From a bacterium (GTDB taxonomy: Bacteria > Patescibacteriota > Patescibacteriia > UBA1558 > UBA10009), in contig JABHGM010000001.1 in NCBI GenBank assembly GCA_018672055.1, forward strand, positions 353,404 to 417,403: DNA of 64,000 bases, in the 5' to 3' direction. Below are positions 3,147-55,373 of the stretch, piece by piece (position 1 is the first letter of the stretch; every line of letters begins with the position of its first letter). The position numbers and the translations under genes are program-made. The notes beneath the pieces are model-generated. The model was not told where the DNA came from and did no database searches. It worked only from the letters and a program-made list of their open reading frames with translations.

Positions 3147-3684
3147 ATATTATTTTTAGTCTTTTAACTGCTCTATGTAATTTGACGTATAAAGCATCAG
3201 GAGTCTTACCGGTTATTTTAGATATCTCTTTAAAATCCATATCATCTACGTATCTATACATCAATATTTCTTTGTCATCATGGTTTAATTCATCTATTTT
3301 ACTAAGCAACTCCTTTTTACTTATATCTCTATCAATCATTTCATTTATAATATCTTTGCCTTGCTTTGTATCTGGCATTCTAGCCATTAACTCATCATCA
3401 TGTATTTCTTTCTTTTTCCTATAATGATCTACTAATAGGTTATGAGCTATTCTGTAAATAAAGCTAGCAAAGTGATCTATATTATTATCACGTCTTAAAT
3501 AGTCCCAAGCTTTTAAAAATGTTTGACTCGTTAGATCTTCAGTTAGTTCTTGTGAGCTAGTTCTAAAATAAAAATACTTATATATTTTCTCACTATACAT
3601 ATCATAAGCTTCGGAAAAGGCATCTGGATCTAAGCTATTTATTTTAGCTAATAAACTAGGCTTAATCTTAAGGGTTTTAGTCAT
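3136..3684 (-). CDS. ECF-type sigma-70 family RNA polymerase sigma factor
   Basis: 182 aa. Region 2 (FLKAWDYLRR.., YRIAHNLLVDHYRKK) and region 4 HTH (MDFKEISKITGKTPDALYVKLHRAVKRLK) are present. Confidence 0.85.
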   Translation of the reverse strand: MTKTLKIKPSLLAKINSLDPDAFSEAYDMYSEKIYKYFYFRTSSQELTEDLTSQTFLKAWDYLRRDNNIDHFASFIYRIAHNLLVDHYRKKKEIHDDELMARMPDTKQGKDIINEMIDRDISKKELLSKIDELNHDDKEILMYRYVDDMDFKEISKITGKTPDALYVKLHRAVKRLKIIYEN

Positions 3685-9991: not shown

Positions 9992-10066
9992 GGCGGCGTA
10001 GCTCAGTGGTAGAGCAGCAGACTCATAAGCTGTTGGTCGGGGGTTCAAATCCCTCCGCCGCTACCA
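9992..10066 (+). tRNA. tRNA with CAT anticodon (elongator Met or lysidine-dependent Ile2)
   Basis: Cloverleaf drawn by hand: acceptor GGCGGCG/CGCCGCT, anticodon loop CTCATAA, T-loop TTCAAAT, CCA encoded. 31:39 is an A-G mismatch. Confidence 0.8.
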
Positions 10067-10071
10067 ATTTA

Positions 10072-10156
10072 GCCAGAGTGGTGAAACTGGTATACACGCA
10101 CGACTCAAAATCGTGTGCCGCAAGGCATGTGGGTTCGACTCCCACCTCTGGCACCA
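10072..10156 (+). tRNA. tRNA-Leu (CAA), class II with long variable arm
   Basis: Acceptor GCCAGAG/CTCTGGC, anticodon stem CACGA/TCGTG with loop CTCAAAA, variable arm GCCGCAAGGC, T-arm GTGGG-TTCGACT-CCCAC, CCA encoded. Confidence 0.85.
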
Positions 10157-10170
10157 CTCATGTGATACAC

Positions 10171-10246
10171 CCGCGCATAGCTCAGTTGGTAGAGCAGTTG
10201 CCTCTTAAGCAAACGGTCGGGGGTTCAAATCCCTCTGCGCGGACCA
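10171..10246 (+). tRNA. tRNA-Lys (CTT)
   Basis: Acceptor CCGCGCA/TGCGCGG, anticodon stem GTTGC/GCAAC with loop CTCTTAA, T-loop TTCAAAT, CCA encoded. Confidence 0.85.
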
Positions 10247-10292
10247 TTGACAAAATTACTAATATACGATAGCTTATAAACATCATATTTGA

Positions 10293-10368
10293 CGCGGGGT
10301 AGAGCAGTTGGCAGCTCGGCAGGCCCATAACCTGCAGGTCGCCGGTTCGAGTCCGGCCCCCGCAACCA
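10293..10368 (+). tRNA. Initiator tRNA-fMet (CAT)
   Basis: Acceptor CGCGGGG/CCCCGCA gives a C1:A72 mismatch. A11:U24 is present. 3' end CCCCGCAACCA is identical to E. coli tRNA-fMet. Anticodon loop is CCCATAA. Confidence 0.85.
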
Positions 10369-23451: not shown

Positions 23452-23528
23452 GGACGCGTAGCTCAGCTGGTTAGAGCGCTTGATTCACATTCAAGAGGTC
23501 AGTGGTTCAAATCCTCTCGTGTCCACCA
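23452..23528 (+). tRNA. tRNA-Val (CAC)
   Basis: Acceptor GGACGCG/CGTGTCC, anticodon stem CTTGA/TCAAG with loop TTCACAT, T-loop TTCAAAT, CCA encoded. Confidence 0.85.
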
Positions 23529-27341: not shown

Positions 27342-28934
27342 ATGCTTTTAAGTCAAAAAACAAAAATTACAAAAACAGCTACAATAGCCTTAGTTTTAGT
27401 CTTTGCGGTAGCTGTTTTTATGTTACTTACAACCATTGCTTTCGCTCAAGATGATTTTGGTTTAGAACCGGTTGTAGAATCAGGTTTAGGTACTACGGAC
27501 ATTAGATTAGTTATTATTAATATTATAAGGGTAGCTTTAGGTTTCTTAGGGATTTTAGCTGTTATCATAATATTATATGGTGGCTATGTTTGGATGACAT
27601 CTGCTGGTAATGATGAAAATGTTAACAAAGCTAAAAGAATATTGGTTAATGGCGTAATTGGTTTAGTAATAATATTATCATCTTACGCTATTGTAACTTT
27701 TGTTTTTAATAAGATGGAAGATGTTATATTTGGAGATGGTTCAGAACAAGGTAGTGGTTATCAGAATTCTGATATTTCTGCAGGAGCTTTGGGTGGCGGG
27801 GTTATAGAAAGCGTTTATCCTTTACCTGGTGCTAATAATGTACCACGTAATACTTTAATAATGGTTTCATTTAAAGAAGAAATACTTTTAGATAGTATTA
27901 TAACTGGTACTCATGCTAATTGTCCTGAGAATATATCATGTGGTATTTTAGCCGGTGATTCCGAAGATCCAAATGTTAAGATACTAAATTTAAATGACAA
28001 CTCCATAATGTCGGCTAGTGATGTCATGGTTTATACTACTGATTTAAAAAATTATATCTTTGATCCATATGGTAGTACAGGTTCACATTTAGGTAACCCT
28101 AATGGCTATACTGATTATCAAGTTAATCTCTCAACTAATATATATTTTAATAATGATTTAAATACTCCAGTCTTTTCTTTAGATGGCTATACTTGGAATT
28201 TTGAAATAAGTAATATTATAGATTTAACACCACCGACAATTATTTCACGTATACCTCAAGGTGAGGTTAACAGGAATGTAGTTATTCAAATAGTATTTAG
28301 TGAAGCTATTAATGCTGCTGCTGCTGTTAATTTAAATAGCGTTGATGTTTTATATGAAAATGTAGCAGGTGAAGAAATATTAATAGAAGGAAGTAGAGTA
28401 ATAAGTAATGGTTTTACAACTCTAACTATTGTTTCTGATATAGCGTGTGAAGGACCTTCAGAGTTTAATTCATGTGGTGATCCAGTCTATTGTTTTCCAG
28501 GTGATGAAGATATTTCTGTAACAGTTAAAGCTGTGACTGATCCTTTATTTCCTTTAGCTGGTATTTCTGATACAGCTGGTAATTCTTTAGCTTTAGACAA
28601 TTCTTGGCTTTTTAATACAAATAATGAATTAGATTTAGATCCTCCTGAATTAGAATCTATTGATCCAGTAGATAATGCTGAACTGGTACCACGTAATAAG
28701 GTGATAGAGGCAGTATTTAATGAAGATCTATTAGCTAGCAGTGTAAATAGTACTAATGTTTTAATATATAATGGTTCATTAAATGATACTCCATATACTG
28801 TTAATTTAAATAATCATGATTTGATTAGAATTAACGCTACTATGGTAGGTAATGCTACATATAGTACACGTTTAACTTCAGGCATTAAAGATATTTATCA
28901 AAATTGTTTTATTCCTCCTTTAACTAATCCATAA
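27342..28934 (+). CDS. Surface protein: VirB2/TrbC-like (T4SS-pilin-like) N-terminal two-helix domain fused to three SbsA/Big_5-like Ig domains
   Basis: 530 aa. Signal peptide (cleavage near AFA|QDD), then GLEPV..GLG and two hydrophobic helices (IIRVALGFLGILAVIIILYGGYVWMTSAG / ILVNGVIGLVIILSSYAIVTFVF). Three Ig-like modules begin PLPGANNVPRNTLIMVSF, IPQGEVNRNVVIQIVFSE, IDPVDNAELVPRNKVIEAVFNE. Stop overlaps the next start (ATAATG). Confidence 0.75.
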   Translation: MLLSQKTKITKTATIALVLVFAVAVFMLLTTIAFAQDDFGLEPVVESGLGTTDIRLVIINIIRVALGFLGILAVIIILYGGYVWMTSAGNDENVNKAKRILVNGVIGLVIILSSYAIVTFVFNKMEDVIFGDGSEQGSGYQNSDISAGALGGGVIESVYPLPGANNVPRNTLIMVSFKEEILLDSIITGTHANCPENISCGILAGDSEDPNVKILNLNDNSIMSASDVMVYTTDLKNYIFDPYGSTGSHLGNPNGYTDYQVNLSTNIYFNNDLNTPVFSLDGYTWNFEISNIIDLTPPTIISRIPQGEVNRNVVIQIVFSEAINAAAAVNLNSVDVLYENVAGEEILIEGSRVISNGFTTLTIVSDIACEGPSEFNSCGDPVYCFPGDEDISVTVKAVTDPLFPLAGISDTAGNSLALDNSWLFNTNNELDLDPPELESIDPVDNAELVPRNKVIEAVFNEDLLASSVNSTNVLIYNGSLNDTPYTVNLNNHDLIRINATMVGNATYSTRLTSGIKDIYQNCFIPPLTNP

Positions 28935-31900
28935 TGAGATTTATTAAAAACAATTTATTCATTTTAATATTACTTGTTGTAGTTAGTTTTTTTCTAATAC
29001 CTAATCTTTCATTTGCTCAAACTGATTTAGGTTTAGAACCGGTTGCAGAAACAGGTTTAGGTTCTAGTAGTTTACCAGAGCTAATTGTTAGAATAATTCA
29101 AATAGCTTTAGGCTTTCTTGGTATCTTAGCCTTAATAGTTATACTTTATGGAGGCTATACATGGTTATCATCTGGTGGTAATCAAGATAAGGTGGCTGAT
29201 GCTAAAAAAATACTTGTTAACGGTGTAATTGGTTTAGTAATAATATTATCTGCATTTAGTATTGTTACTTTTTTAATTACTAGAATATTTGATGCTACAG
29301 GTGGTGAAGCTTTGTATTGCGAAATAGGTCAAGTTGAAGAATGTTCTATGTCAGGTGATTGTGAAAGAGAGAAAACTTGTATTGATAATGGTGAAGGTAA
29401 TGGTGTCTGGGGAGATTGCGAAATAATTTACTCAGGTGAATGTAGTCCACTTAGTGATAGTGAATTTTTTAGACTAACAGCAACTGCTCCAGCTAATGGG
29501 GATGAACTAAATATTGCTAATGTTGTGGTTCAATTAACTTTTAATAATAATGTAGGTGATTTTAATGCCATAGATTTATCAGAAGGAGAAGGTGTAACTA
29601 TAGTTCAACGTTCAACTAATAATTTAGTACCTTTAGTAGGCGAAGTTTCAAATAATCCAAAAAAATTAAATATATATCCTGATAAAGATCAAGCTGGTTA
29701 TGCTTGTACTGGACATCCAGATCTTGCTTGTTTTCCATATGATTCAATTGATGATTTAAATAATTGGTATACAGTTACTGTTTTAACTGAGGGCGTTGTT
29801 TTAACTAATTCTTCTGGAACTGAAGTTTCTTGTTTAGATATACCTTGCGTATTTGAATTTAAAACAGGGTTTTCTGTAGATACAGAAAACCCTGTTGTAG
29901 ATTTAATTTCAGCTGTAAGTAATGGTCAGTTTGATTGGAATAATTCAGATAATATAGATATAAATATTTCTGAAAGCTTTTTATTTAATAGTCAGGCTTC
30001 TGATGACGCTGGTTTAGCTAGTTCTAATTTTTTTGAAAATCAAATTACTTTATCATCTACTCCTGATCTTGGACAAGGCTTGTTCTTATCACTTATTCCG
30101 TGGTCTCCTGAAGATTTAGGTTACCAAGTATCAGATGTAAAGCAGGTTGGGGCTGAAGTAACTGATTATGCTGGTAATTCAACTCAATCGATTAAACAAG
30201 TAACTCTTTTTTCAGCCACTTGTTATAACGAGATACAAGATGGAGATGAAATAGGTATAGATTGTGGTGGCTCATGTCCAGCGTGTAGTGATGAAAATGT
30301 AGATAATCCAATAATAACTTCTATTGATCCACCTAATGGTGCTTCAGGAAATTGGATAACCATTTATGGTTCAGGTTTTGGTGAGAGTCAAGGTACTATT
30401 AAATACAGGGATCAACTAGGAAATATTAATTATATTGGTGTACCTTCTTTAGGTATGTTGGTATGCGAAAGTCCATGGAATGATACTTGGATAATTATGG
30501 AAATACCAGATATTGATCTTGGTTTGGTTGATTTACAGGTGGTTAGGTTTAATTCTAGTATTAGTAGTAATTGGTATGAAGATTTTGATGTAAATACTAT
30601 TCAAAGACCTGGTATTTGTTTAATGACTTCAGATGATGGATATTATAATGATGAATTAAATATTATTGGTCATAGTTTTGGTGATAACACTGATGTACGT
30701 GATATATTTTTTGGACAATCAGTGGAAAGGGTATCAGCTTCAAATCAAAGCTTCAGTATTGAGGGAAGCATAGAACATGCTTATGGTAATGTACCTTATT
30801 TAGAAAGTGGCCAGACAGTAGTTAGGGTTGAAATAGATGGTGAAGAAAGTAATGGACTATATTTTACAGTAATAGATTCTAACCAAGAAAGTTCAATAAG
30901 TTTTTCACCAGATTCAGGTAATGTAGGTGAATACATTACTATTTATGGTTCAGGTTTTGGTGATTTCAAAGGTGAAGGAACTGTATATTTTAATAATAAT
31001 ATTGAAGGTAGTTTTGATTTTCCAGATGCTTGTGGCACTAACTATTGGTCTGACGATCAAATCGTGGTTAAAGTACCTGTCGGATCAAGTGATGGAGCAT
31101 TAAGAGTAGAAACAGATAGTGGTTACGTTGTTACTTCATCAACATTTTTTGATTTTAATAATACATTAGATATTTCTCCTGGAATTTGTAGTATTACTCC
31201 TAATTCAGGTTTAATAGATACGCCTGTATATATTGCTGGTGAGTTTTCTGAAGATGTTTTAGTTAATTTTTCTGGGATTGAACTATCTGATGTTGATATT
31301 GATAATAATGAAATAACCATCTTAGTTCCGAATGTTTCTTCAGGCTTAGTAAATTTAGAAGAACCAACTGGCGCTGAAAGTAATAGTGTTAATTTTTCAG
31401 TTGGTCAGACTTCTCAAGGCGGAGAACCTAATGATGATTATTTTGAATGGCAGTTTACAACTTGTGAAGATTGTTTAATTCCTGAAGTTGAGGAAAATGG
31501 TATATGTTCAAATGGTGATTTAGCTTCACCAAGCCCAAGACCATATAGTACTGATGGTTTTATTGATCAAGATGTTACCATAACTTTTAATAGTACTATG
31601 GACCATAGTACATTTATTGCTAATGATTCTGTTATTTTAGAAGTATGTGATGGTTTAGAAGTTAATTGTACTTCTAGTAATTGGTCATTTGTATTAGGTG
31701 ATAATAGAAATTCTGTAGTATTAAATCCAGATAATGATTTTAATGCTGATACTTGGTATAGGATAACTTTAACTGAAGATATTGCTAATTTTGAATATAA
31801 TATGGATGCAGAATATTCTTGGTCATTTAAAACAGCTCAAGAAAATTTACAATGTACTGCTGACTCAGTTATTATTTCTCCTTATGATAGAAGAGAAGGA

Positions 31901-34900
31901 TCAACGCTTGGACCAATTGAATTAAATGAATATGTTAACTATTCAGCATCAGGTGTAAATAGTAATAATTGTGCTTCATGTTCAGATGATTTTGAATGGG
32001 AATGGGAATCGAATGATCCAGGTGCTGTTATATCTGATACTAATTTATCAACTAATCAACTACATGCTGAAGGTTTAATTTCTTCTAATCAAGAAATAAT
32101 AATAGCTCAGATAATAGACGTTGAACCTTATCCAATAGGTAATGCATATTTAAATATTGTAGAAGAAACAGGTAATCAAGATAATGAGCCAGGTGATGAT
32201 CAATTACTGCTTGTTGATTATCAACCGGTTGGTGATCAGGTTTGCTTAAATACCTTAGCTCAAGTTGAATTTAATCATGGATTATCGGATAATGGCTTAT
32301 CTCAGTTTAGTTTTTTTAAGTGCTCAACTAGCGAAGGAGACTGTCCAACTTTAGGGGAGGGAGGTAATTGGATATCTGCAGGTTCAGACATTACTTTTAA
32401 TAACAATAATACTCTAGTTAGTATGTCTCCTAGTAGTGGTTTACTTGATCCAGATTTTGATTATAGGATAATTATGTATAGTGGTGATCCTGATATTCTT
32501 GGTGAGAGTCGCATTAGTACAGATGATGGCTTATTCTTAAATCAAGAAGGCTGTGAATATGGAGGCGGTAATTGGTTTCAGGGTATGCAATGGTGCTATT
32601 GGATATTTAGCACAGTAGATGAAAGGTGTGAAGTTGATAGCATAGGAATTTCTCCAAATAATGTTATTAATAATATTAATGATACACAGGATTGGCAGGC
32701 TACAGCTTATGATCAAGAAGGCTTAGCATTAACTGATGTTGTTGACTCATGGACTGTTAATGATAGTGAAATAGCTAGTATTGTAGATAATGGTGATAAT
32801 ACTGCTACTACTGATAGTCTATCATCTGGCAGTACTTGGCTTTATACTGATATAGATATAGATAATATTCGAGGGGAAGCCTGGTTAGAAGTGGAGCCAA
32901 GTATTGTTAATCCTCAAATAATTAGTACTCAACCTATAGGTCAAGAATATTTTTGTACAAACTCATTGGTAGAAGTTACTTTTGATCAGTATTTAAAGAG
33001 AGAGACTGTAAATCAAAATACATTTGAATTAAATCAATTTTCAGATACAGATTTAGGTGGCTGTATTGCTTTTGATGAAACTATAGCTTTTGGTGAGCCA
33101 ACTAATTTAATAAATAAATTTACGGATGTATATTTTAATAAGTTTATATCTAATTTAACTAGTAAGTTAGTAAATTATGTATTTAACAAGGTGTATGCTA
33201 TTGTTCCTGACTGGATTCCTCAATCTGGATATTGGTGTCCCTTAAATAATTCAGGTGAATGGATTTTAGATAATATTGGTGGTGAAGGTAGGGTTAAATT
33301 TCAGCTAAACGAGGTTTTGCCAGGAAATAGTAGTATTCAAGTTTTAATTCAAGGCGGTCAAGGTGGAGTCTTAAGTATTCAAGACTTACCTTTAGATATA
33401 AATAGTGATACTTATGATTATTATTTTAATACTAGTGATACTTATTGTGAATTGAGCTTTTTACAAGTTTCTACTGATTTAGAAACTTATTCGCCAGAGT
33501 ATACTTTTAATATTAGTGAAGATTCTAGCAATCTAGATGAAAATGATCCATTGAGTGGTAATTTTGATACTATTAATGATTATGATAAAGCTTTCTATGT
33601 AACTGGTTTTAGTCAAAATGGTCAAGCTTTGACTTCAGTGCCTGGTGAGTATGAATGGATATGGCGTTGGAATAGTGAAGACACTTCTATTGCTTTAACT
33701 ACAGATTCTGTTAATTACAGTGAGTATTATGATGCAGATTATGATGGTAACTATAATGTAGTACTAGCCGCTAACAATAATGGTGAAACAGATATTACTG
33801 CTCATGCAGTATTTATAGATAACAGTTCCTTGGCAGGTACTGGGCAGGTTATCGTTGATTTATGCGAAAATCCATGGCCAGCTGTAGATATAACTAATTT
33901 AGATAATACATATTATGAAGATACTAATTTTTCATTTGGTTTAAGTTATTGTCGTGATGCTGGTTTATATGGCTTTAATGATGATCTACCTTCACTTGGT
34001 GATATTTCTGATAATGTAACCCTTTATAATATTAGTGCTGATGATTTATTAAAAGAGTATTTAATGCCAGTAGGAGATGATCTTATTGGTTTAAGAGTAT
34101 ATACTAATGATAATCATTTAAGTCCAGCTGAGTGGTATTCAAATAATATACCTGAGTTACAGCAGGGTAATTTATCCTATCTAATAGTAGATGGCTATCA
34201 AGCAATTCAAGATGGTAGAACTATTTACGTAGCAGCTACTAGTGTAACTAATGATAATATATCAATTTATTCAGATATTTTCCTTCTATCATATAACTCT
34301 GAGGCTTCAGCTGAAACAGTTAATATATATAATCAATTAATTGATAGATGGATTTTTAATACAAATATTTTAGAAGAGAATAAGGGTAAGTTAATTAGAG
34401 ATTTAAAAAGGTTAAATGATTTAACCTATATTAAAGAAGTATTAAATAATTATAATGCTATAAATAATACATATCCTATATTATCAGGTGGTACTTTCTT
34501 AACAGGTATGAGTACTTCTAAATGGCCTTCCTGGAATAATACTTTTTCTTCAGAACTTAATGCTTCATTACCTATTGATCCTATTAATCAATTTAATGCA
34601 TGCGCAGATTGCACTTCATCTTCAGATGCTAGTTGTGATAACTATGATATAAATACTTGTTGGAACCCTGATTTAAATAACGGGCAAGGTAATTTTTCTT
34701 GTGACGCTGGTTCTTATTTCTATAGATATCAATATTCATATAATGCAGGACCTGATTATTTATTAGCTGCTAAAATGGAATTTCCATATGTAGGTAATAT
34801 AGCTTCTACTTGGAATCCTTCTTTCGATACTAATCATTTATATTTAAGTACAGAATTTGTAGAAGGTTGTGGTTTTGAATTTTTAGGACAAGTTTGTGGT

Positions 34901-36727
34901 AATGGTTCTATTGAAGGCAGTGAAGAATGTGAGTTAGGTGATTCTATAAATTACTGTGGCTATGATCACGCATATTACGAGTCACAACTAGTTGGTTGTT
35001 CTGATATTGATTGTACTTGGGCTGAAGATGATTCTGGTGTTTGCGGAGGTTATTGTGGTGATGGTAATGTTGATAGTTTTGAAGATTGTGACGGAGGCAT
35101 TAATTGTAGTGACACTTGTGATTTTATACCATATTGTGGTGATAATATTGCTCAAACTTATTTAGATGAAGAATGTGATGGTTCTGATTTAGGTAATTTT
35201 AGTTGTAGTGATAATTCAACACCTAGTTGTAATACGTCTTGTGAAATAAGTTGTCCTTCTGGTGAATTATATGGTGGATCATGTGGTAATAATATAAAAG
35301 AAGGCACAGAAGAGTGTGATGGTCTTGATACGCCTCCTAATACCTCATGTAACACATCCTGTGAGGTAACAAGCTGTACTGGTAGTTATTTAGCTTGTGA
35401 TGGTAATTTAACTGATTTAGATGGTTGTGAAGTAGATATATTATCTGATGAATATAATTGTACTGCTTGTGGTAATAGCTGTTATGATGTTTCTGATATT
35501 AATGAGAATACTTTAGTTGAGTGTACTCAATATATTAATGATGATGGAGATGATTCAGCTGTTTGTTCATATGGTTGTAATCCATATGATACTTGGTTAA
35601 ACTGTGATTATTCTCCAGCGGGTTGTGAATCAAATTATTTAACGGATTCTAGTAATTGTAATGTTTGTGGAAATGACTGTAGTATTGATCCTGGCACTAT
35701 AATTCAAGCTGATCTTGATAATAATATTGATTATTTTTCAGGTTCACCATATCCAGCAGCTGATACTACAATTTATACCTGTGAAAATGGCGGTTGTGGT
35801 TTTATTTGTGAGGAAGGTAGTTATGCAAATTGTGATGAAGTTTCTGATTGTGAAACTATTTTATATAATGATAGTGAAATTACTTGCGGAGAATGTGGTA
35901 ACGGAGTAATTGAAGGTAATGAGCAATGTGAATTAGGTGATTATAGTGCAGAGTTAGTATTTGTTTTTGATATTTCTACAAGTATGGATGATGATGCAGC
36001 TGGTCTATGTTCAGCTTTAGATAGCTTATCTCAAGAATTAGATGAAGATGAAATTAACTATATGTTAACTGTAATGACTTTAAATGGTGGTGTTGGCACA
36101 ACAACTGTTGGCACAACAGATGCTTATGATGCTTTAGTGACTGATTGTGATATATATGGACATGATAATATTCAACACTTTAATTTTTATGATAATTCAT
36201 CAAATAATATTTCAGTTGACGTCGAACAAACTTGTGGGGTAATAACTGGTGCTAAGGAACATTGGGGATATGCTACAAATATTATTGCTCAGTCATATAA
36301 TTGGAATACAGATTATTCAATAACACAAAAGATAATTGTACCAGTTAGTAATGAAGGTCCTTGGTGTGGTGGCGGTAATACTAGTAATGATAGTACTATT
36401 GATAGTGAGGATATTAGTATTGTTTCTACTGCTATTACTACAGCCCTGAATAATTCTGTATTAGTTAGTCCTGTTATAATTCAATTTATTCCACTTGATT
36501 ATGATGAGGATGATGATGATTATGAAACATATTATTATGATGATAATGAAGAACCAGCTCAATCTTACGCTAGTCTTTCCTGGGGTGCTTTATCTGGTTT
36601 AAGTGATAATTTTGTACAGACTGGTGGAATATATACTAATTCATCAGATAATTGGTCTAGTACAATAAATACTATAATTACGGGTAGTACTTGTACTGAT
36701 GAATGTATTTTTCCAGTGATTGAATAA
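28934..36727 (+). CDS. Giant 2597-aa surface protein: same T4SS-pilin-like N-terminal domain, IPT/TIG and Big-like domains, five Myxococcus-type Cys-rich repeats, C-terminal vWA domain
   Basis: N-terminal 115 aa nearly identical in pattern to the upstream protein (GLEPVAETGLG..IIQIALGFLGILALIVILYGGYTWLSSGGNQDKVADAKKILVNGVIGLVIILSAFSIVTF). IPT/TIG-like ITSIDPPNGASGNWITIYGSGFG, ISFSPDSGNVGEYITIYGSGFG, ICSITPNSGLIDTPVYIAGEF. Five CGNG.IEG.EECELGD-type repeats. vWA MIDAS VFVFDISTSM. Confidence 0.8.
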   Translation: MRFIKNNLFILILLVVVSFFLIPNLSFAQTDLGLEPVAETGLGSSSLPELIVRIIQIALGFLGILALIVILYGGYTWLSSGGNQDKVADAKKILVNGVIGLVIILSAFSIVTFLITRIFDATGGEALYCEIGQVEECSMSGDCEREKTCIDNGEGNGVWGDCEIIYSGECSPLSDSEFFRLTATAPANGDELNIANVVVQLTFNNNVGDFNAIDLSEGEGVTIVQRSTNNLVPLVGEVSNNPKKLNIYPDKDQAGYACTGHPDLACFPYDSIDDLNNWYTVTVLTEGVVLTNSSGTEVSCLDIPCVFEFKTGFSVDTENPVVDLISAVSNGQFDWNNSDNIDINISESFLFNSQASDDAGLASSNFFENQITLSSTPDLGQGLFLSLIPWSPEDLGYQVSDVKQVGAEVTDYAGNSTQSIKQVTLFSATCYNEIQDGDEIGIDCGGSCPACSDENVDNPIITSIDPPNGASGNWITIYGSGFGESQGTIKYRDQLGNINYIGVPSLGMLVCESPWNDTWIIMEIPDIDLGLVDLQVVRFNSSISSNWYEDFDVNTIQRPGICLMTSDDGYYNDELNIIGHSFGDNTDVRDIFFGQSVERVSASNQSFSIEGSIEHAYGNVPYLESGQTVVRVEIDGEESNGLYFTVIDSNQESSISFSPDSGNVGEYITIYGSGFGDFKGEGTVYFNNNIEGSFDFPDACGTNYWSDDQIVVKVPVGSSDGALRVETDSGYVVTSSTFFDFNNTLDISPGICSITPNSGLIDTPVYIAGEFSEDVLVNFSGIELSDVDIDNNEITILVPNVSSGLVNLEEPTGAESNSVNFSVGQTSQGGEPNDDYFEWQFTTCEDCLIPEVEENGICSNGDLASPSPRPYSTDGFIDQDVTITFNSTMDHSTFIANDSVILEVCDGLEVNCTSSNWSFVLGDNRNSVVLNPDNDFNADTWYRITLTEDIANFEYNMDAEYSWSFKTAQENLQCTADSVIISPYDRREGSTLGPIELNEYVNYSASGVNSNNCASCSDDFEWEWESNDPGAVISDTNLSTNQLHAEGLISSNQEIIIAQIIDVEPYPIGNAYLNIVEETGNQDNEPGDDQLLLVDYQPVGDQVCLNTLAQVEFNHGLSDNGLSQFSFFKCSTSEGDCPTLGEGGNWISAGSDITFNNNNTLVSMSPSSGLLDPDFDYRIIMYSGDPDILGESRISTDDGLFLNQEGCEYGGGNWFQGMQWCYWIFSTVDERCEVDSIGISPNNVINNINDTQDWQATAYDQEGLALTDVVDSWTVNDSEIASIVDNGDNTATTDSLSSGSTWLYTDIDIDNIRGEAWLEVEPSIVNPQIISTQPIGQEYFCTNSLVEVTFDQYLKRETVNQNTFELNQFSDTDLGGCIAFDETIAFGEPTNLINKFTDVYFNKFISNLTSKLVNYVFNKVYAIVPDWIPQSGYWCPLNNSGEWILDNIGGEGRVKFQLNEVLPGNSSIQVLIQGGQGGVLSIQDLPLDINSDTYDYYFNTSDTYCELSFLQVSTDLETYSPEYTFNISEDSSNLDENDPLSGNFDTINDYDKAFYVTGFSQNGQALTSVPGEYEWIWRWNSEDTSIALTTDSVNYSEYYDADYDGNYNVVLAANNNGETDITAHAVFIDNSSLAGTGQVIVDLCENPWPAVDITNLDNTYYEDTNFSFGLSYCRDAGLYGFNDDLPSLGDISDNVTLYNISADDLLKEYLMPVGDDLIGLRVYTNDNHLSPAEWYSNNIPELQQGNLSYLIVDGYQAIQDGRTIYVAATSVTNDNISIYSDIFLLSYNSEASAETVNIYNQLIDRWIFNTNILEENKGKLIRDLKRLNDLTYIKEVLNNYNAINNTYPILSGGTFLTGMSTSKWPSWNNTFSSELNASLPIDPINQFNACADCTSSSDASCDNYDINTCWNPDLNNGQGNFSCDAGSYFYRYQYSYNAGPDYLLAAKMEFPYVGNIASTWNPSFDTNHLYLSTEFVEGCGFEFLGQVCGNGSIEGSEECELGDSINYCGYDHAYYESQLVGCSDIDCTWAEDDSGVCGGYCGDGNVDSFEDCDGGINCSDTCDFIPYCGDNIAQTYLDEECDGSDLGNFSCSDNSTPSCNTSCEISCPSGELYGGSCGNNIKEGTEECDGLDTPPNTSCNTSCEVTSCTGSYLACDGNLTDLDGCEVDILSDEYNCTACGNSCYDVSDINENTLVECTQYINDDGDDSAVCSYGCNPYDTWLNCDYSPAGCESNYLTDSSNCNVCGNDCSIDPGTIIQADLDNNIDYFSGSPYPAADTTIYTCENGGCGFICEEGSYANCDEVSDCETILYNDSEITCGECGNGVIEGNEQCELGDYSAELVFVFDISTSMDDDAAGLCSALDSLSQELDEDEINYMLTVMTLNGGVGTTTVGTTDAYDALVTDCDIYGHDNIQHFNFYDNSSNNISVDVEQTCGVITGAKEHWGYATNIIAQSYNWNTDYSITQKIIVPVSNEGPWCGGGNTSNDSTIDSEDISIVSTAITTALNNSVLVSPVIIQFIPLDYDEDDDDYETYYYDDNEEPAQSYASLSWGALSGLSDNFVQTGGIYTNSSDNWSSTINTIITGSTCTDECIFPVIE

Positions 36728-45013: not shown

Positions 45014-45541
45014 TTAAATATTAATTATTCCAACCTCATTAGCTATTGCTATATAAGTAAGTATTGATAATGAAGTAGTAGTTAATCCAAGACTAATGAA
45101 GAAGCAACTTTTAAATGCTTTTTCTTTTTTTTGAGGATCAGAATAGTCAACTGCCCAATCAAGATAATCAAGTATATATATGAATAGTATTATAGCGCTT
45201 ATTATAATAAGTATACTACCTGCTATTTTCCATGCTATATGACTTTGAATAAAACTTAATAGAATAAGTATTATTGAGGACAAAAAGCATTGAGTCATAA
45301 AATAGAAAATGATTGGTGATTTTAGATTAATACTACTAACAAAATGTATTTTTGTACCATCAATTTTTAATATTTTAGCTATTAAGAAAAAAGTAATTGG
45401 TAGTAAAAATAATATTATACTAAGTGTACCAGCGGATTTATTATATTCTATTTCACTATGCGCTTGGATGAGCATGAAATCAGTACATATTAATATAGTT
45501 ATTAATGAGACAATAATCTCTCTCGATATTCTAAGTAACAT
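45014..45541 (-). CDS. Paralog 1 of a triplicated polytopic membrane protein family (unknown function)
   Basis: 175 aa, 4-5 TM helices. Shares FYFMTQCFLSSIILILLSF / DYLDWAVDY blocks with the 46305 paralog. Confidence 0.6.
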   Translation of the reverse strand: MLLRISREIIVSLITILICTDFMLIQAHSEIEYNKSAGTLSIILFLLPITFFLIAKILKIDGTKIHFVSSINLKSPIIFYFMTQCFLSSIILILLSFIQSHIAWKIAGSILIIISAIILFIYILDYLDWAVDYSDPQKKEKAFKSCFFISLGLTTTSLSILTYIAIANEVGIINI

Positions 45542-45573
45542 TTATTCTCCTTTTTAAAAAGCAATAATATTGT

Positions 45574-45602
45574 ATTCTAATTTAATTTTATCTATTTGTC
45601 AA
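45574..45602 (-). promoter_or_regulatory. Minus-strand promoter TTGACA-17-TAGAAT for paralog 1, followed by a GGAG ribosome-binding site
   Basis: Reverse complement read directly. Preceded at 45612-45642 by the terminator hairpin of paralog 2. Confidence 0.5.
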
Positions 45603-45656
45603 TTATTGAAATAAAAAACTCTTCATTCAGGAAGAGTTTATGTAGCTACTTAATAT

Positions 45657-46184
45657 TTACCAAGTTAACCAATTTTGAAGAGCAAAATTTTCTAAATATG
45701 TGGGAAGATTATTATATATCCTAACAGTTGGTATCATGATTACTAAATAGAGACAAAGAGTAGTTAATAGACCTATTATTGTCCATTGTTCTTTAGAATT
45801 TATGTACTTATTATATTCGTAATTTCTATCTATTGTATCTGTTAGTAATCTAGTTGCATAATATAGAAGAAATACAATCACTATGAGACCAGGCATGATT
45901 TGAGCTGACGTTGGATTTGCATTTTTCGCTATAAGAAGACCACTAATAGCAATAATTAGGAGCTGACTAACTATTACATAATCTCTTATTTTATTTACTT
46001 CTTTACCTTTTTTATATGGACCAGGATTTAATGAAAATGCCATTAAAATATATACAAAGATACTAATACCAACAGTCATATTATATCCTATAATCGGGGC
46101 AAGGCATATATAAAAAATAAATGTAAATAATAGTCCAATTACTGAAATACCAAAACTTTTACATATCGTATAAAAATTATTCAT
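45657..46184 (-). CDS. Paralog 2 of the membrane protein family
   Basis: 175 aa, polytopic. C-terminal ..LENFALQNWLTW is similar to ..LDYFCLQKYWYLLN of paralog 3. Confidence 0.55.
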   Translation of the reverse strand: MNNFYTICKSFGISVIGLLFTFIFYICLAPIIGYNMTVGISIFVYILMAFSLNPGPYKKGKEVNKIRDYVIVSQLLIIAISGLLIAKNANPTSAQIMPGLIVIVFLLYYATRLLTDTIDRNYEYNKYINSKEQWTIIGLLTTLCLYLVIMIPTVRIYNNLPTYLENFALQNWLTW

Positions 46185-46226
46185 TTTACACTCCTATTTT
46201 TATTTATTTGAAAGATCGTTAATTAC

Positions 46227-46255
46227 AACTTAGTATACATAATATGATTTGTCAA
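46227..46255 (-). promoter_or_regulatory. Minus-strand promoter TTGACA-17-TAAGTT for paralog 2
   Basis: The 26-nt block ATTTGTCAATTATTGAAATAAAAAAC is identical to the block upstream of paralog 1. It is followed (46266-46293) by the terminator hairpin AAACCCGTCTTTACGATGGGTTT of paralog 3. Confidence 0.45.
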
Positions 46256-46304
46256 TTATTGAAATAAAAAACCCATCGTAAAGACGGGTTTATAAGGATT
46301 GATA

Positions 46305-46952
46305 TTAATTAAGTAAGTACCAATATTTTTGTAAACAGAAATAATCTAAGATAGATGATTTATCTGCAGCAACTGTTATTGTTGAGTATGTTATCAGTAT
46401 CAATAATACAGCTGTTAATATGAGACTAACAAAAAACCAGTATTTGTACTTTTGTTCAATATTAAAGAATGGGTGATAAGGCATCGGCGCATGGTGATCA
46501 TAGTAATCAGTTAAAGCATTTACCCACTTAAAATATTTATTTGAAAAATATATCATGATGAGAAAACTAGCTATACTAATAATCATGTTACCTATTTCAT
46601 CAATAAAAGGTTGATAAAATGTACTGACCAAAATTAATATAGTCGCTGAAAGATAAGATTGAGTTACTAAATATAGATTGGTTGGTTTATCATATTTTTT
46701 GGATTCTTCTGAGTAATGGGCTTCTTTAGGATGAGAAAGAGGTTTTTTATATAATTCAAGTATCCATATTCCAGCTGGTGTTATTATTAACATCCATCCA
46801 AGAAAGTGGAATGATTGTTGGAAACTCATTCCAAGCTTTACTCCAAATATAATTAAGCTAATACAATATAGCAAACTTAGTATGGGGTATAAGAAATTAC
46901 GAGATATATTTTTTATTGAATATATTCTTATTTCTTTTTTTGTTGGTACCAT
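46305..46952 (-). CDS. Paralog 3 of the membrane protein family
   Basis: 215 aa, polytopic. Conserved blocks shared with paralogs 1 and 2. Confidence 0.6.
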   Translation of the reverse strand: MVPTKKEIRIYSIKNISRNFLYPILSLLYCISLIIFGVKLGMSFQQSFHFLGWMLIITPAGIWILELYKKPLSHPKEAHYSEESKKYDKPTNLYLVTQSYLSATILILVSTFYQPFIDEIGNMIISIASFLIMIYFSNKYFKWVNALTDYYDHHAPMPYHPFFNIEQKYKYWFFVSLILTAVLLILITYSTITVAADKSSILDYFCLQKYWYLLN

Positions 46953-52157: not shown

Positions 52158-52607
52158 ATGGAAAAAACATTAATAATAATTAAACCTGATGCTCTTCAAA
52201 GAAATTTAGTTGGAGAAATATTAACTCGTTTTGAAAAAAAAGGCTTAAAAGTCGTTGGTATGAAAATGATGGAGCTTGATGATTTAAAATTAGAAGAACA
52301 TTATGCTCATATTAAGGATAAACCATTTTTCGGAGATATTAAAAAATATATGAAAAGCTCTCCAGTTATTATTTTAGTTCTAGAAGGTACTCAAGTAATA
52401 GAAGCTTGCCGTATAATTTGTGGCTCAACTAAAGGTATAGAAGCTGATGCTGGTACAATACGTGGTGATCTAGCTATGAGTAATTTTAACTTAGTTCATG
52501 CTTCTGATTCCTTAAAATCATCTGAAGAAGAGATAAAGAGATTATTTAATGAAGATGAGTTATTTGACTATAGTAAGTTAGACACTATAATGATATATGA
52601 GGATTAA
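52158..52607 (+). CDS. ndk: Nucleoside diphosphate kinase
   Basis: 149 aa. TLIIIKPDALQRNLVGEI and active-site His region N..HASD. Confidence 0.93.
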   Translation: MEKTLIIIKPDALQRNLVGEILTRFEKKGLKVVGMKMMELDDLKLEEHYAHIKDKPFFGDIKKYMKSSPVIILVLEGTQVIEACRIICGSTKGIEADAGTIRGDLAMSNFNLVHASDSLKSSEEEIKRLFNEDELFDYSKLDTIMIYED

Positions 52608-52881
52608 TTTGACCTTCAATTTAAAGTATGATAATATACTATTAATATGTTAAAAATAGCTGAAAATCCCATTTATTTTACAAACCAATACACTATTTGG
52701 GTTGTTAATCGTGGCTAGCTAGTTATATACATATAAATTATACAAGCTGGTCTCAAAAAAGGTCAGTTTTTTGAAAAAGTGGACATTAGGAACCTATATA
52801 TATTAATTAGTTAATATTTACAGATTTTTAGTGTTCATACTAAAAATGATTATTTAAAATAAATAGAGGAGATAAGAAAGA

Positions 52882-52956
52882 ATGAAAGATTCGGAATCTA
52901 AGAAAGAGAGTTACTTTAATGCAGGATTAAAGAAAAAATTTGAAGTTAACCGTTAA
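52882..52956 (+). CDS. Candidate 24-aa peptide ORF (MKDSESKKESYFNAGLKKKFEVNR) with strong ribosome-binding site
   Basis: ATG at 52882 preceded by AATAGAGGAGATAAGAAAGA (GGAGG at optimal spacing). Most genes here lack a strong Shine-Dalgarno sequence. Confidence 0.3.
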   Translation: MKDSESKKESYFNAGLKKKFEVNR

Positions 52957-52991
52957 AATGAATAGCACAATAATCAACCCGGGAGAAAAAT

Positions 52992-53225
52992 ATGCAAGTC
53001 AATAATTTCTGTATAAGTGAAACTGATAATATAATCGCAGTAATTAAAAATTACCAGAATAAACTCTTAATAATAAGAGGTAATTTAACCAGAAAAGAAG
53101 CTAGAAAGCTTCCTGAATACAGAAAGGTTGCTAAGGTAATAAAAAGACAAAATAAAAGATTATTGACCATTAGAAAAAATGAGATAACCGAAATTGAAAA
53201 TTCATCTCAATCAATGTATGCATAA
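52992..53225 (+). CDS. Small basic hypothetical protein (77 aa)
   Basis: Track ORF with CCGGGAGAAAAAT ATG ribosome-binding site. Lys/Arg-rich (..RKEARKLPEYRKVAKVIKRQNKRLLTIRKNE..). Confidence 0.4.
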   Translation: MQVNNFCISETDNIIAVIKNYQNKLLIIRGNLTRKEARKLPEYRKVAKVIKRQNKRLLTIRKNEITEIENSSQSMYA

Positions 53226-53250
53226 TAATTAGGCATAAGTGATCTAATAA

Positions 53251-53277
53251 ACCCTGTAGTTTCTACAGGGTTTTTTA
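53251..53277 (+). terminator. Strong intrinsic terminator (CCCTGTAG-TTT-CTACAGGG + T6)
   Basis: Read directly, after the 77-aa ORF. Confidence 0.75.
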
Positions 53278-53282
53278 TTTGT

Positions 53283-53612
53283 CTTGATTATGTCAGCATG
53301 CTATACTTAATTATGCCCTACTTAGTTTTGGCTGATTGAATCTCTACAACCTTTTTTCTGAGGGAGTTCTAAATCTTAAGGGGCCGTGGCCTCTTTTTGC
53401 GAACACCCAGCAACCGTAACGTAGGCTACATTAGTTTTAGTAGGTTAATAAACTTGATTAACTTATCTAGCCTGCGTGGTTCGTTTGGTTCTCAGGACTT
53501 TCAATCGCCCTAGTAGGGCTTTAAGTTAAGCTAAAAATGTATAATTTTGTAATAAAACAAGTAATTTCACGTCTTATTTACTAGTAGGGTTTTAAATCCT
53601 ATTTTTTTATTT
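53283..53612. ncRNA. GC-rich ORF-free structured segment; candidate ncRNA or cis-regulatory leader of unknown class
   Basis: Markedly higher GC than its surroundings. Hairpins GGGGCC-GT-GGCCTC+T5 and CTAC-ATTAGTTTTA-GTAG. 8-bp long-range pairing TGCCCTACT (53323) with AGTAGGGC (53513). No ORF of 60 aa or more on either strand. Confidence 0.25.
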
Positions 53613-55373
53613 ATGAATAATAATACTAAAAAAACATTTAATACTTATTGGCAACATATAAAGAAATATAAGTTGTCAGGTTTTGTTATATTTATTTCTA
53701 TAATTATTGGAGTTATCACTAATATATGGGCTCCTTTGTTATATAAAAAGTTTTTTGATATTTTAACTGGTTCTATAACCGTTGTATCTCAAACTGATGC
53801 TTTAATAGAAATATTATATAATATTTTATTTATCTATTTACTTGGTTGGGTATTCTGGCGACTAGCTACTTTTACTAATAGTTATTTTCAAACTAAAATA
53901 ATGGCGGATTTAACTAATACTTGCTTTTCATATATTCATAAACATTCAATTACTTTTTTTAATAATAACTTTGTTGGTTCTCTAGTTAAACGAGTAAACC
54001 GTTTTTCTAGAGCTTTTGAAGGGATAGCCGATGCTTTAACTTGGGAACTATTACCTGCCTTAATTAATATAATAGCTGTTACATTAGTATTATTTTCTAG
54101 AAATTCAATATTGGGCTTAGCAATACTTATTTGGGTTACTATATATATAACAATTAATTATTTCTTTAGTAGGTTTAAGTTAAAATATGATATTGCTAGA
54201 AGTAAGATGGATTCTGTGGTTACTGGAGTTTTAGCTGATTCTATTACTAATCAATTAAATATTAAAATCTTTACTGGCTATGAACGTGAAAAGAAAAGGT
54301 ATAATAAAGTAATCACTAAACTTCAAAAGATGAGAAGATTTAGTTGGGATTTAGGAAATGCTTTCGAAGCTTTTCAAGTTCTTTTGATGATATTTTTAGA
54401 ATTAGCTATGTTTTACTTTGCTATTAAGCTTTGGCAAAAAGATTTAGTAACAGTTGGTGACTTTGTTTTAATTCAAGCTTATTTAATGACAATATTTAAA
54501 CAGTTATGGAGCTTTGGTAGGGTTATAAGACATTTTTATGAACATTTAGCTGATGCTGAAGAAATGACCGAGATACTTGAAACACCTCATGAAATACAAG
54601 ATATTGCTAGAGCTACAAATTTAGAAATTAAAAAAGGTATGATTGAATTTGATAATGTTGATTTTAGCTATCATAAGACACGTAAAGTAATTAAGAAACT
54701 TAATTTAATTATTAAGCCTCAAGAAAGGTTAGCTTTAGTTGGTGAATCTGGAAGTGGTAAATCTACTATTATTAATATATTACTTAGAAATTACGATATT
54801 AATTCAGGTGATATTAAAATAGATGATCAAACTATTGTTAAAGTTACGCAAGAAAGCTTAAGAAAAAATATTAGTATTGTTTCTCAAGAGCCTATTTTAT
54901 TTCATAGAACTCTTAAAGAAAATATTCGTTATGGTAAACCTAATGCTACTAACGCTGAAGTTTTTAAAGCAGCTAAACTTGCTCATTGTAATAGATTTAT
55001 ATCAGAATTCCCAGAAGGATATGATACTTTTGTTGGAGAGAGAGGAGTTAAATTATCTGGCGGTGAACGTCAGAGAGTTGCCATAGCTAGAGCTATTTTA
55101 AAAAATGCTCCTATCTTAATACTTGATGAAGCTACTTCAAGCTTAGATTCAGAGTCAGAAGAATTAATTCAAGATGCTCTTAACTCTTTAATGAAGGATA
55201 AGACAGTTATTGTTATAGCTCATAGATTGTCTACAATTATGAGAATGGATAGAATTATAGTTTTGAAAAAAGGTAAGGTTATAGAGCAGGGAAGTCATTC
55301 TGAATTAATTAAAAAAAGAGAAGGTGTTTATAATAGGTTATGGACAAAACAGATTGGTGGATTTATAGCTTAA
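53613..55373 (+). CDS. ABC transporter, fused permease/ATP-binding subunit (MsbA-like exporter)
   Basis: 586 aa. Six TM helices, Walker A GESGSGKST, signature LSGGERQRVAIARA, Walker B ILILDEATS. Confidence 0.92.
   Translation: MNNNTKKTFNTYWQHIKKYKLSGFVIFISIIIGVITNIWAPLLYKKFFDILTGSITVVSQTDALIEILYNILFIYLLGWVFWRLATFTNSYFQTKIMADLTNTCFSYIHKHSITFFNNNFVGSLVKRVNRFSRAFEGIADALTWELLPALINIIAVTLVLFSRNSILGLAILIWVTIYITINYFFSRFKLKYDIARSKMDSVVTGVLADSITNQLNIKIFTGYEREKKRYNKVITKLQKMRRFSWDLGNAFEAFQVLLMIFLELAMFYFAIKLWQKDLVTVGDFVLIQAYLMTIFKQLWSFGRVIRHFYEHLADAEEMTEILETPHEIQDIARATNLEIKKGMIEFDNVDFSYHKTRKVIKKLNLIIKPQERLALVGESGSGKSTIINILLRNYDINSGDIKIDDQTIVKVTQESLRKNISIVSQEPILFHRTLKENIRYGKPNATNAEVFKAAKLAHCNRFISEFPEGYDTFVGERGVKLSGGERQRVAIARAILKNAPILILDEATSSLDSESEELIQDALNSLMKDKTVIVIAHRLSTIMRMDRIIVLKKGKVIEQGSHSELIKKREGVYNRLWTKQIGGFIA

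Follow-up and report, generated by a model that had tools for sequence, protein, structure and literature searches.

It is rare for a structured RNA to exceed 200 nt and have conserved junctions, and past cases have been ribozymes, ribonucleoprotein (RNP) scaffolds or global regulators. A product-RNA release mechanism operates in the 6S RNAs of Escherichia coli and Bacillus subtilis, and sequence models perform poorly in detecting 6S RNAs from phyla other than the well-studied ones. The 6S consensus comprises a closing stem, a single-stranded central bubble and a terminal stem-loop, with G-C pairs bordering the bubble (PMC4064990). The raiA motif RNA, OLE, ROOL and GOLLD measure 200 nt or more; several of their helices meet in a junction, unpaired nucleotides are highly conserved and the peripheral hairpins vary. 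They have a narrow phylogenetic range, are encoded by independent genes with a function not obvious from context, and were discovered as GC-rich intergenic regions in AT-rich genomes. The Patescibacteria, or Candidate Phyla Radiation (CPR), represent a large part of bacterial diversity yet have not been brought into culture, and next to nothing is known of the non-coding RNAs that they possess. Here, a 64,000-nt stretch of a Patescibacteria genome of 30% GC (contig JABHGM010000001.1; referred to as the window) was analysed, in which a new structured RNA family of about 215 nt, sharing all the listed properties of those four RNAs, is encoded between ndk, the gene of a nucleoside diphosphate kinase, and the gene of an ATP-binding cassette (ABC) exporter.

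The interval between ndk and the ABC gene had been singled out, by a reading of the sequence alone (the original prediction), as a gene-poor island, and the listing of open reading frames (ORFs) on both strands confirmed that the longest one encodes 77 amino acids. The island is made up of three independent units in series, namely a filler (52608-53279), the RNA gene with its promoter (53279-53526) and the control region of the ABC exporter (53548-53612; Table 1). The GC content of 0.41-0.46 across 53291-53526 is, as had been noticed, far above the local background (window mean 0.297, standard deviation 0.056, in 120-nt windows); similar values are reached by some coding stretches elsewhere, so that GC content alone is not a unique mark. 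GC-rich intergenic DNA is a workable signal of non-coding RNAs in CPR genomes of 30% GC. The RNA sequence folds at -74.3 kcal/mol (z = -5.5), and the 114 nt on its 3' side show no excess structure (z = -0.3). From the segment 53283-53612, proposed as structured and non-coding up to the exporter gene, the part ending at about 53526 was retained as RNA and the remainder to 53612 was not.

The first homologues were found by nhmmer in the DNA 5' of the ABC gene at two related loci (L069 and L003; loci are designated by L numbers), and a three-sequence covariance model (CM) was built. Further members were obtained by a pattern scan of metagenome contigs and from contigs encoding ABC or ndk homologues, resulting in 13 distinct members in Patescibacteria contigs, including the window copy, with CM scores of 127-209 bits. 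The 13-sequence alignment (A8) has an eight-helix consensus of 58 pairs, 37 of them with changes on both sides. Paired bases filled 90.8% of its cells, compared to 36-50% when the 3' partners were slid by 1-3 columns, and the observed values were reached in none of 500 shuffles. The G-U combination occurred 85 times in the aligned pairs and A-C only 19 times, which identifies the plus strand as the RNA strand. Homologues, covariation and folding bear out the structured non-coding RNA that had been suspected in the GC-rich segment, and show that it is conserved. With its small, well-defined membership, covarying pairs, clear promoter and terminator signals and alternative fold, the family is directly testable.

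The consensus structure begins with the 8-bp long-range pairing already seen in the original prediction, GCCCTACT (53315-53322) with AGTAGGGC (53512-53519), which corresponds to helix 1 (H1) and is maintained by compensatory changes in relatives. Pairing of the 5' and 3' ends in H1 is followed by a variable internal loop and then by H2/H3, and this closing rod leads to a junction formed by a 16-nt 5' strand (ACAACC..., with ACAA invariant) and a 3' strand of about 12 nt containing an invariant UG. The short arm, H4/H5, has an invariant A-A mismatch and a conserved CGUG loop, while a conserved GUAA bulge is found in the long arm, H6-H8. The longest near-invariant block of A8 is the 5' rod strand beside the junction.

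Searches with cmscan against Rfam 15 (4227 families), covering 52500-53700, 53308-53530 and four homologous loci, gave no family match at E<=10; at the gathering and E<=10 thresholds only terminator-like or generic hairpins (miRNA precursor) appeared. This agrees with the earlier failure to recognise by eye a transfer-messenger RNA (tmRNA), RNase P RNA, signal recognition particle (SRP) RNA or 6S RNA, none of which was matched at E<=10. ARAGORN found no tmRNA, and the RNA has neither a tRNA-like end nor an SRP domain IV motif. No description of the family was found in the literature. In 0.92 Mb surrounding ABC orthologues, neither the covariance model R2 nor an nhmmer profile revealed additional members, distant ones included. 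In viral contigs the RNA was absent from 0.76 Mb, where a 14-base pattern gave chance matches (best CM score 15 bits), and a stricter three-block pattern gave none in IMG/VR, indicating that the RNA is not phage-borne. Two candidates of the metagenome scan, L081 and L082, were discarded as chance matches of high GC without a CM match, and a likeness by eye to the RNA 3' end in L209-L211 was confirmed neither by CM nor by nhmmer. These last contigs measure about 2.3 kb, encode the closest ABC relative (78% identity) and begin about 200 nt 5' of its start codon, and no RNA was detected in those 200 nt; all 13 contigs with this relative are 2-5 kb long, and their ends could reflect an assembly break at a repeat or strain-variable site.

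Analysis of the flanking signals showed that the RNA has the features of a separate transcription unit. In each of the 13 members a TATAAT or TATACT -10 element is located 5-6 nt 5' of the first conserved base; it has a TGn extension in 10, a TG one base further 5' in two and none in L223. A terminator-like hairpin followed by a T-run is present 3' of the RNA in about 10 of the 13 members: seven were found by script (six within about 40 nt of the end, that of L220 at about +92), and those of L083, L086 and L215 by eye. In about eight of the ten copies upstream of the exporter, the RNA terminator precedes the exporter promoter. In addition, three members are detached from the ABC gene. In L220 the RNA is found 644 nt away on the downstream side of the ABC gene and faces a convergent gene; in L086 an IS3-like transposase gene is found upstream and a convergent patatin gene downstream; and in L085 ndk is followed after 90 nt by the RNA and then by a GIY-YIG ORF and a tRNA gene, with no ABC gene. 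The insertion test proposed in the original prediction, that is, whether ndk adjoins the ABC gene in relatives, gave a clear answer, since ndk abuts the ABC gene in no relative. The order ndk, variable filler, RNA, ABC gene is shared by the window, L069, L221 and L223, with a filler of about 0.7-3.2 kb, and the overall distance between ndk and the RNA ranges from 90 nt to 3.2 kb. The RNA's own promoter, its usual terminator, its separability from the ABC gene and the independent promoter of the exporter favour a free RNA acting in trans. Together with the convergent genes of L220 and L086, they also disagree with the earlier suggestion of a riboswitch-like leader extending to the ABC start codon, and point to a free-standing RNA.

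The promoter of the exporter belongs to a block, TTTTGTAAYAAA-N-TTTYACGTCTTA, which is kept before the ABC gene in genomes with and without the RNA. Its form is TGTAAC-N16-CGTC in relatives and begins with TGTAAT in the window. Among 75 loci, 15 have the motif GTAA[CT]-N15-17-CGTC within 200 nt 5' of the orthologous ABC gene (background, 0.0065 per 240 nt), and some of these loci have no RNA. Promoters of extracytoplasmic function (ECF) sigma factors contain AAC at -35, CGT or CGTC at -10 and a spacer of 14-17 bp (PMC5758882), and the sequence at 53548-53573 matches this pattern. Comparison with the B. subtilis promoters of sigma X, M, W and V showed agreement in the -35 AAC (in the relatives; TGTAAT in the window), the 16-nt spacer, the CGTC -10, the position before a membrane exporter and the occurrence of an ECF-type sigma gene in the window, whereas the -35 is flanked by a T-tract in B. 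subtilis and by an A-tract here. The same block, written as TTGTAACAAA...ACGTCTTA, was also considered as a small riboswitch or a sigma-70 promoter and rejected, because its spacing to TATAAT-like hexamers is wrong and fits an ECF-type promoter. The consensus TGTAAC-N16-CGTCTTA, found before a widely conserved CPR exporter, offers a handle on stress regulation in the CPR.

The ECF-type sigma gene of the window (3136-3684, minus strand) encodes Sigma70_r2 and r4_2 domains, and a 402-aa ORF downstream of and overlapping it (1938-3146, minus strand) may encode an anti-sigma factor. Upstream of the sigma gene, TGAAAG (3723-3718) is separated by 16 nt from CGTC (3701-3698), an arrangement resembling the exporter motif. 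This sigma factor is a plausible cognate factor and may drive the exporter, the similarity of the motifs being suggestive only. At two loci with SecDF synteny and no RNA upstream of the exporter (L208:6499-7668 and L212:6079-7206), a protein with Sigma70_r4 and HARE-HTH domains is encoded just 3' of the ABC gene. Antisense pairing between the RNA and the ABC leader was also considered; only 5-bp matches were found (UACAA:UUGUA and CGUAA:UUACG), and it was rejected because the latter is broken in L069 and L083, which have CGCAA.

Table 1. Features of the island between ndk and the ABC exporter gene. Positions are those of the 64,000-nt window.
Feature	Position	Strand	Evidence or remark
ndk (nucleoside diphosphate kinase), upstream syntenic anchor	52158-52607	+	Pfam NDK, E = 1.6e-47
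Weak hairpin of 6 bp (2 G-U) with T6, probable ndk terminator	52747-52772	+	Sequence reading and minimum free energy (MFE) fold of 52608-52880
AU-rich imperfect 58-nt palindrome, over the promoter of the original prediction	52779-52838	.	blastn opposite-strand self-match; hairpin of -17.6 kcal/mol
Shine-Dalgarno (SD) sequence AGAGGAG (52865-52871) and 24-codon ORF (52882-52956), ORFan	52865-52956	+	Sequence, ORF listing
SD sequence GGGAG (52981-52985) and 77-aa Lys/Arg-rich ORF (52992-53225), ORFan, predicted helical hairpin	52981-53225	+	
Strong intrinsic terminator closing the unit of the two small ORFs	53249-53279	+	11-bp stem (5 G-C), 3-nt loop, T-run
Sigma-70-type promoter of the RNA gene, TTGTCT-17-TATACT, with extended -10 TG (TGcTATACT)	53279-53307	+	Consensus scan
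New structured RNA gene, about 215 nt	53312-53526	+	CM, covariation, folding
Helix H1	53316-21/53513-18	+	Closing rod
Helix H2	53333-41/53499-507	+	Closing rod
Helix H3	53343-45/53494-96	+	Closing rod
Unpaired conserved strands	53346-61 and 53482-93	+	Consensus
Helix H4	53362-69/53401-08	+	Short arm
Helix H5	53376-84/53389-97	+	Short arm
Helix H6	53412-15/53478-81	+	Long variable arm
Helix H7	53419-37/53459-77	+	Long variable arm
Helix H8	53441-44/53453-56	+	Long variable arm
Segment Z (AGGACTTTC), alternative partner of GGGAGTTC (53362-69)	53494-53502	+	RNAduplex, column scan
ECF-sigma-type promoter of the ABC exporter, TGTAAT (53548-53), 16 nt, CGTC (53570-73)	53548-53573	+	Motif comparison
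Hairpin (TAGGGT/ATCCTA) with T7 in the ABC 5' untranslated region	53585-53608	+	Sequence, repeat analysis
ABC exporter, fused ABC_membrane and ABC_tran, downstream syntenic anchor	53613-55373	+	Pfam

Further sequence analyses revealed four segments of the RNA that resemble one another and are nearly palindromic. W (GGAGCUC) is part of the 5' rod strand, X (GGGAGUUC) and Y (GAACACCC) are the 5' and 3' strands of H4, and Z (GGAACUUCC) lies in the 3' rod strand. The X:Y pairing of H4 is 100% paired with 2 compensatory changes. Segment Z also pairs with X, in competition with H2, H3 and H4, and this X:Z duplex was recovered by an unbiased column scan. RNAduplex, applied to 11 sequences, gave it as an unbroken helix of 7-9 bp in each, as stable as H4 or more so in 10 of them; on inspection of A8, L221 and L223 retain 7 bp as well, which makes all 13 members. 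The two global folds differ by 0-10 kcal/mol, and the alternative one (fold B) is the MFE structure in L220 and L085. A conserved 8-mer with either of two partners in all members suggests a conformational switch, in which the invariant GGGAGUU would pair with GAACACCC in H4 or with AACUUCC, which closes the rod as its 3' strand. The RNA would toggle between two folds as a protein-binding or regulatory RNA.

The filler on the 5' side of the RNA gene (52608-53279) is read here as species- or lineage-specific DNA in a recombination-prone spot. A blastn search of 52608-53282 against 80 related loci returned nothing below E = 0.1, and relatives hold unrelated DNA at this position. No direct or inverted repeats delimiting a mobile element were found at its flanks. 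The idea of an inserted element, raised in the original prediction, fits this 5' part of the island, which behaves as inserted, lineage-specific DNA. In other genomes the stretch from ndk to the RNA gene is a hot spot of variation (L086:1662-2793; L221:5534-8618; L223:5504-8113; L069:3865-5653), which contains an IS3-like transposase gene in L086, genes for PhoU and the phosphate transporter PHO4 in L221, and various short ORFs in L069 and L223. A divergent gene for a protein of about 200 aa without Pfam match is located just upstream of the RNA in L221 and L223.

In the filler itself, the weak hairpin after ndk was not flagged by the consensus scan, and the palindrome between it and the first small ORF has no second copy within the window. 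The promoter TTGAAA...TATATA suggested there is weak, as it fails the consensus scan, has a spacer of 19 nt and not 18, and falls within the AU-rich palindrome. Both small ORFs are present as described, with their SD sequences 10 nt (24-codon ORF) and 6 nt (77-aa ORF) from the ATG. The statement that most genes of this region lack an SD sequence is also correct, the SD core being found in 5 of 54 ORFs of at least 100 aa when 17 nt 5' of the start codon were scanned (background, 5.9% of random 17-mers). Given the two SD sequences, translation of both small ORFs is plausible. Their products showed no significant match to Pfam or PHROG and no tblastn match in any related locus, and the 77-aa product matched itself alone among 5.8 billion proteins. 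Single-sequence AlphaFold2 (AF2) prediction of the latter gave two long helices, with mean confidence (pLDDT) of 86.7 and 86.4 in the two best models and 44-63 in the other three; coming from a single sequence with three poor models, the predicted helical hairpin is weak evidence. The terminator proposed after this ORF is real, with its 11-bp stem at 53249-53273 followed by a T-run, and terminator-like sites in the region number 3 compared to 0.4 expected. Elsewhere in the window, perfect AGGAG sequences precede three adjoining ORFs without Pfam match (45014-46952, minus strand; 175, 175 and 215 aa) and an ORF at 13675, which look foreign or specially translated in a genome nearly free of SD sequences.

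The best joint explanation of these data, to which we assign a probability of about 0.55, is a three-unit island with a stand-alone RNA gene, whose RNA would be free and act in trans, most likely as a protein-binding or regulatory molecule with two folds. The data show the boundaries of the gene, its structure, conservation and strand, and its separability from the ABC gene; action in trans, the switch and a 6S-like mechanism are inferred. Several points weigh against the explanation. The distribution of the RNA is patchy, with no match within 6 kb on either side of the ABC gene in 77 other Patescibacteria loci; the X and Z segments are nearly invariant, so that the X:Z helix shows little true covariation; and the ends and abundance of the transcript are predictions. 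Moreover, 10 of the 13 copies are located directly 5' of the same ABC orthologue, in the same orientation and 56-249 nt from its ATG, and the window, L221 and L223 lack a terminator that would separate the RNA from the ABC promoter, so that some functional coupling or read-through is possible. The latter points are shared with an account in which the RNA is a cis-acting leader of the exporter (a riboswitch, or a protein- or tRNA-sensing attenuator) and a signal sensed by the structured domain sets the read-through, from its strong promoter, of downstream terminators into the exporter gene, beside the stress-inducible ECF-type promoter; we regard it as rather improbable. It has in its favour that insertions accumulate between ndk and the RNA and never between the RNA and the ABC gene, that a P1-like closing helix, a short linker and a terminator recall the layout of terminating riboswitches and leaders of transporter genes, the RNA usually lying 5' of such a gene, and that two mutually exclusive folds are what a switch needs. 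The hairpin just before the ABC start codon is probably the only terminator available to the RNA gene of the window, and its 5' arm matches the 3' end of the RNA (the P1 3' strand) at 14 of 15 positions, through a 15-nt direct repeat (CTAGTAGGG[C/T]TTTAA at 53510-53524 and 53581-53595, repeat D2), so that the 5' strand of P1 could act as an anti-terminator. This copy exists in this genome only, however, and no anti-terminator pairing consistent across genomes was found by inspection, the matches being of 5 bp at shifting positions. Equivalent hairpins with a U-run just before the ATG occur in L003, L069, L083, L215, L221 and L223, and also in L208, L212 and L024, which have no RNA. Unlike terminating riboswitches and leaders, the exporter here has its own promoter downstream of the RNA terminator, kept with or without the RNA; the RNA is separated from any co-oriented downstream gene in L086 and L220 and has no ABC gene downstream in L085; and no known riboswitch or aptamer class was matched in Rfam. 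A further idea is that of a missed ordinary protein-coding gene in 53283-53612. ORFs of 27-42 codons with similar-looking translations cover the conserved core in several genomes, but the frames are not kept (the window ORF stops at 53419 and that of L069 continues), indel lengths are not multiples of three, and substitutions are compensatory across helices and not synonymous, which leaves this idea with almost no probability. It is also very unlikely that the two small ORFs, as a micro-operon, are the functional core of the island, the GC-rich segment included, whether they are taken as a toxin-antitoxin or small-protein module or as what is left of an integrated element. Both have SD sequences where 9% of genes have one, they are flanked by a palindrome and a strong terminator, two of the five models of the 77-aa product show a confident helical hairpin, and L086 holds its IS3-like transposase at the corresponding spot. 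Against this, the RNA is kept in 12 other genomes entirely without these ORFs, a terminator and a separate promoter lie between them and the RNA, flanking repeats are absent, and the lack of any homologue or Pfam/PHROG family also speaks against a toxin-antitoxin or conserved small-protein module (PADLOC was outside this search).

The kinship of this new RNA family to described RNAs may be weighed as follows. The most specific guess, a doubtful one, is a 6S-like decoy for RNA polymerase. Like 6S RNA (SsrS; RF00013, 6S-Flavo), the RNA is encoded by a gene of its own of about 200 nt that has a strong sigma-70 promoter, its 5' and 3' ends form a long interrupted closing stem, a long distal arm is present, and the large central opening has 12 or more unpaired nt on either side. 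Covariation supports both the closing stem (H1-H3) and the distal arm (H6-H8). The 5' strand of the closing stem beside the opening is the most conserved, where 6S RNAs template their product RNAs, and a conserved alternative partner exists for the released 3' strand. If this 5' rod strand (GAUUGGAGCUCUAC) served as the template of transcription, the 3' strand would be set free, re-pair with GGGAGUU and collapse the junction; such a mechanism would explain the size, the closing rod, the distal arm, the unpaired junction strands, the conservation of the 5' rod strand and the ready partner X. In contrast to 6S RNA, an additional hairpin of conserved sequence (H4/H5) makes the opening a three-way junction and not a simple bubble, and this hairpin and the invariant unpaired ACAA, A-A and UG are more typical of a specific tertiary fold. 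The pairs bordering the opening are not G-C throughout and vary between members (U-G/C-G/U-A in H3, A-U/G-C in H6), the two 6S models of Rfam 15 gave no match at E<=10, and the patchy distribution also counts against this guess. A 6S-like RNA would be the first global transcription regulator RNA in the CPR, where none was found in the literature and we know of none. Somewhat less doubtful, though still tentative, is a new ornate and switching class specific to Patescibacteria, with its own biochemical role and tied by function, beyond synteny, to an envelope-stress (ECF-controlled) ABC exporter, and possibly a trans-acting sensor, ribozyme or RNP scaffold; this would exclude variants of 6S RNA, RNase P RNA and riboswitches. 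Despite its likeness to raiA motif RNA, OLE, ROOL and GOLLD, the RNA matches none of them in sequence or structure in Rfam 15, is smaller than OLE, ROOL and GOLLD, has been found so far in Patescibacteria only, and differs in the near-palindromic segments that give alternative folds. Far less probable is an extremely reduced or divergent housekeeping RNA unrecognised by Rfam, chiefly RNase P RNA with GGGAGUU:AACUUCC as P4. Diverged RNase P RNAs of the CPR are reported to lack several helices and to be missed at Rfam thresholds, and cut-offs down to 5 bits were required to detect them (Lui et al., 2021; PMC8172020). The promoter looks constitutive, a conserved long-range helix lies beside the terminal stem, and variable peripheral hairpins are common to both. 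In addition, GGAAGUUC in L003 resembles what we take to be the CR-I pattern, GNAANNUC, which is counted here in favour of RNase P. However, the strand order does not thread P1-P2-P3-P4, P2/P3 are missing, and the 3' strand of the would-be P4 lies 5' of the 3' rod strand and not 3' of it. No model (RF00010/RF00011 or related) matched a 223-nt slice at E<=10, a scan that does not reach the 5-bit level, and the distribution is patchy. The consensus sequences that we presume for RNase P (CR-I, GGAAAGUC; CR-V, ACAGAA...GGCUUA), as well as CR-IV and the J2/4 ACAGAA, are absent from A8, and 215 nt is, to our knowledge, well below the smallest bacterial RNase P RNA. As for other housekeeping RNAs, the missing tmRNA, tRNA-like end and SRP domain IV motif argue against them. 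By inspection of A8, threadings as RNase P (P1-P4), group II domain V, a K-turn, a T-arm or Y-RNA-like module and SRP domain IV were each rejected because strand order, bulge side or motif fails.

With regard to the genomic context, orthologues of the ABC exporter with 44-67% identity were found in Komeilibacteria, Magasanikbacteria and other Patescibacteria metagenome-assembled genomes. The genes 5' of the island are predicted by Pfam to encode ComEC, a metallo-beta-lactamase (MBL)-fold protein, a response regulator and ndk, and this gene order is kept in L069, L085, L221 and L223. The sole Rfam matches at gathering threshold in the window are tRNA genes, a cluster of four (Met, Leu, Lys, Met) at 9992-10368 and one tRNA-Val at 23452-23528. 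A giant ORF of 2597 aa extends over 28934-36727.

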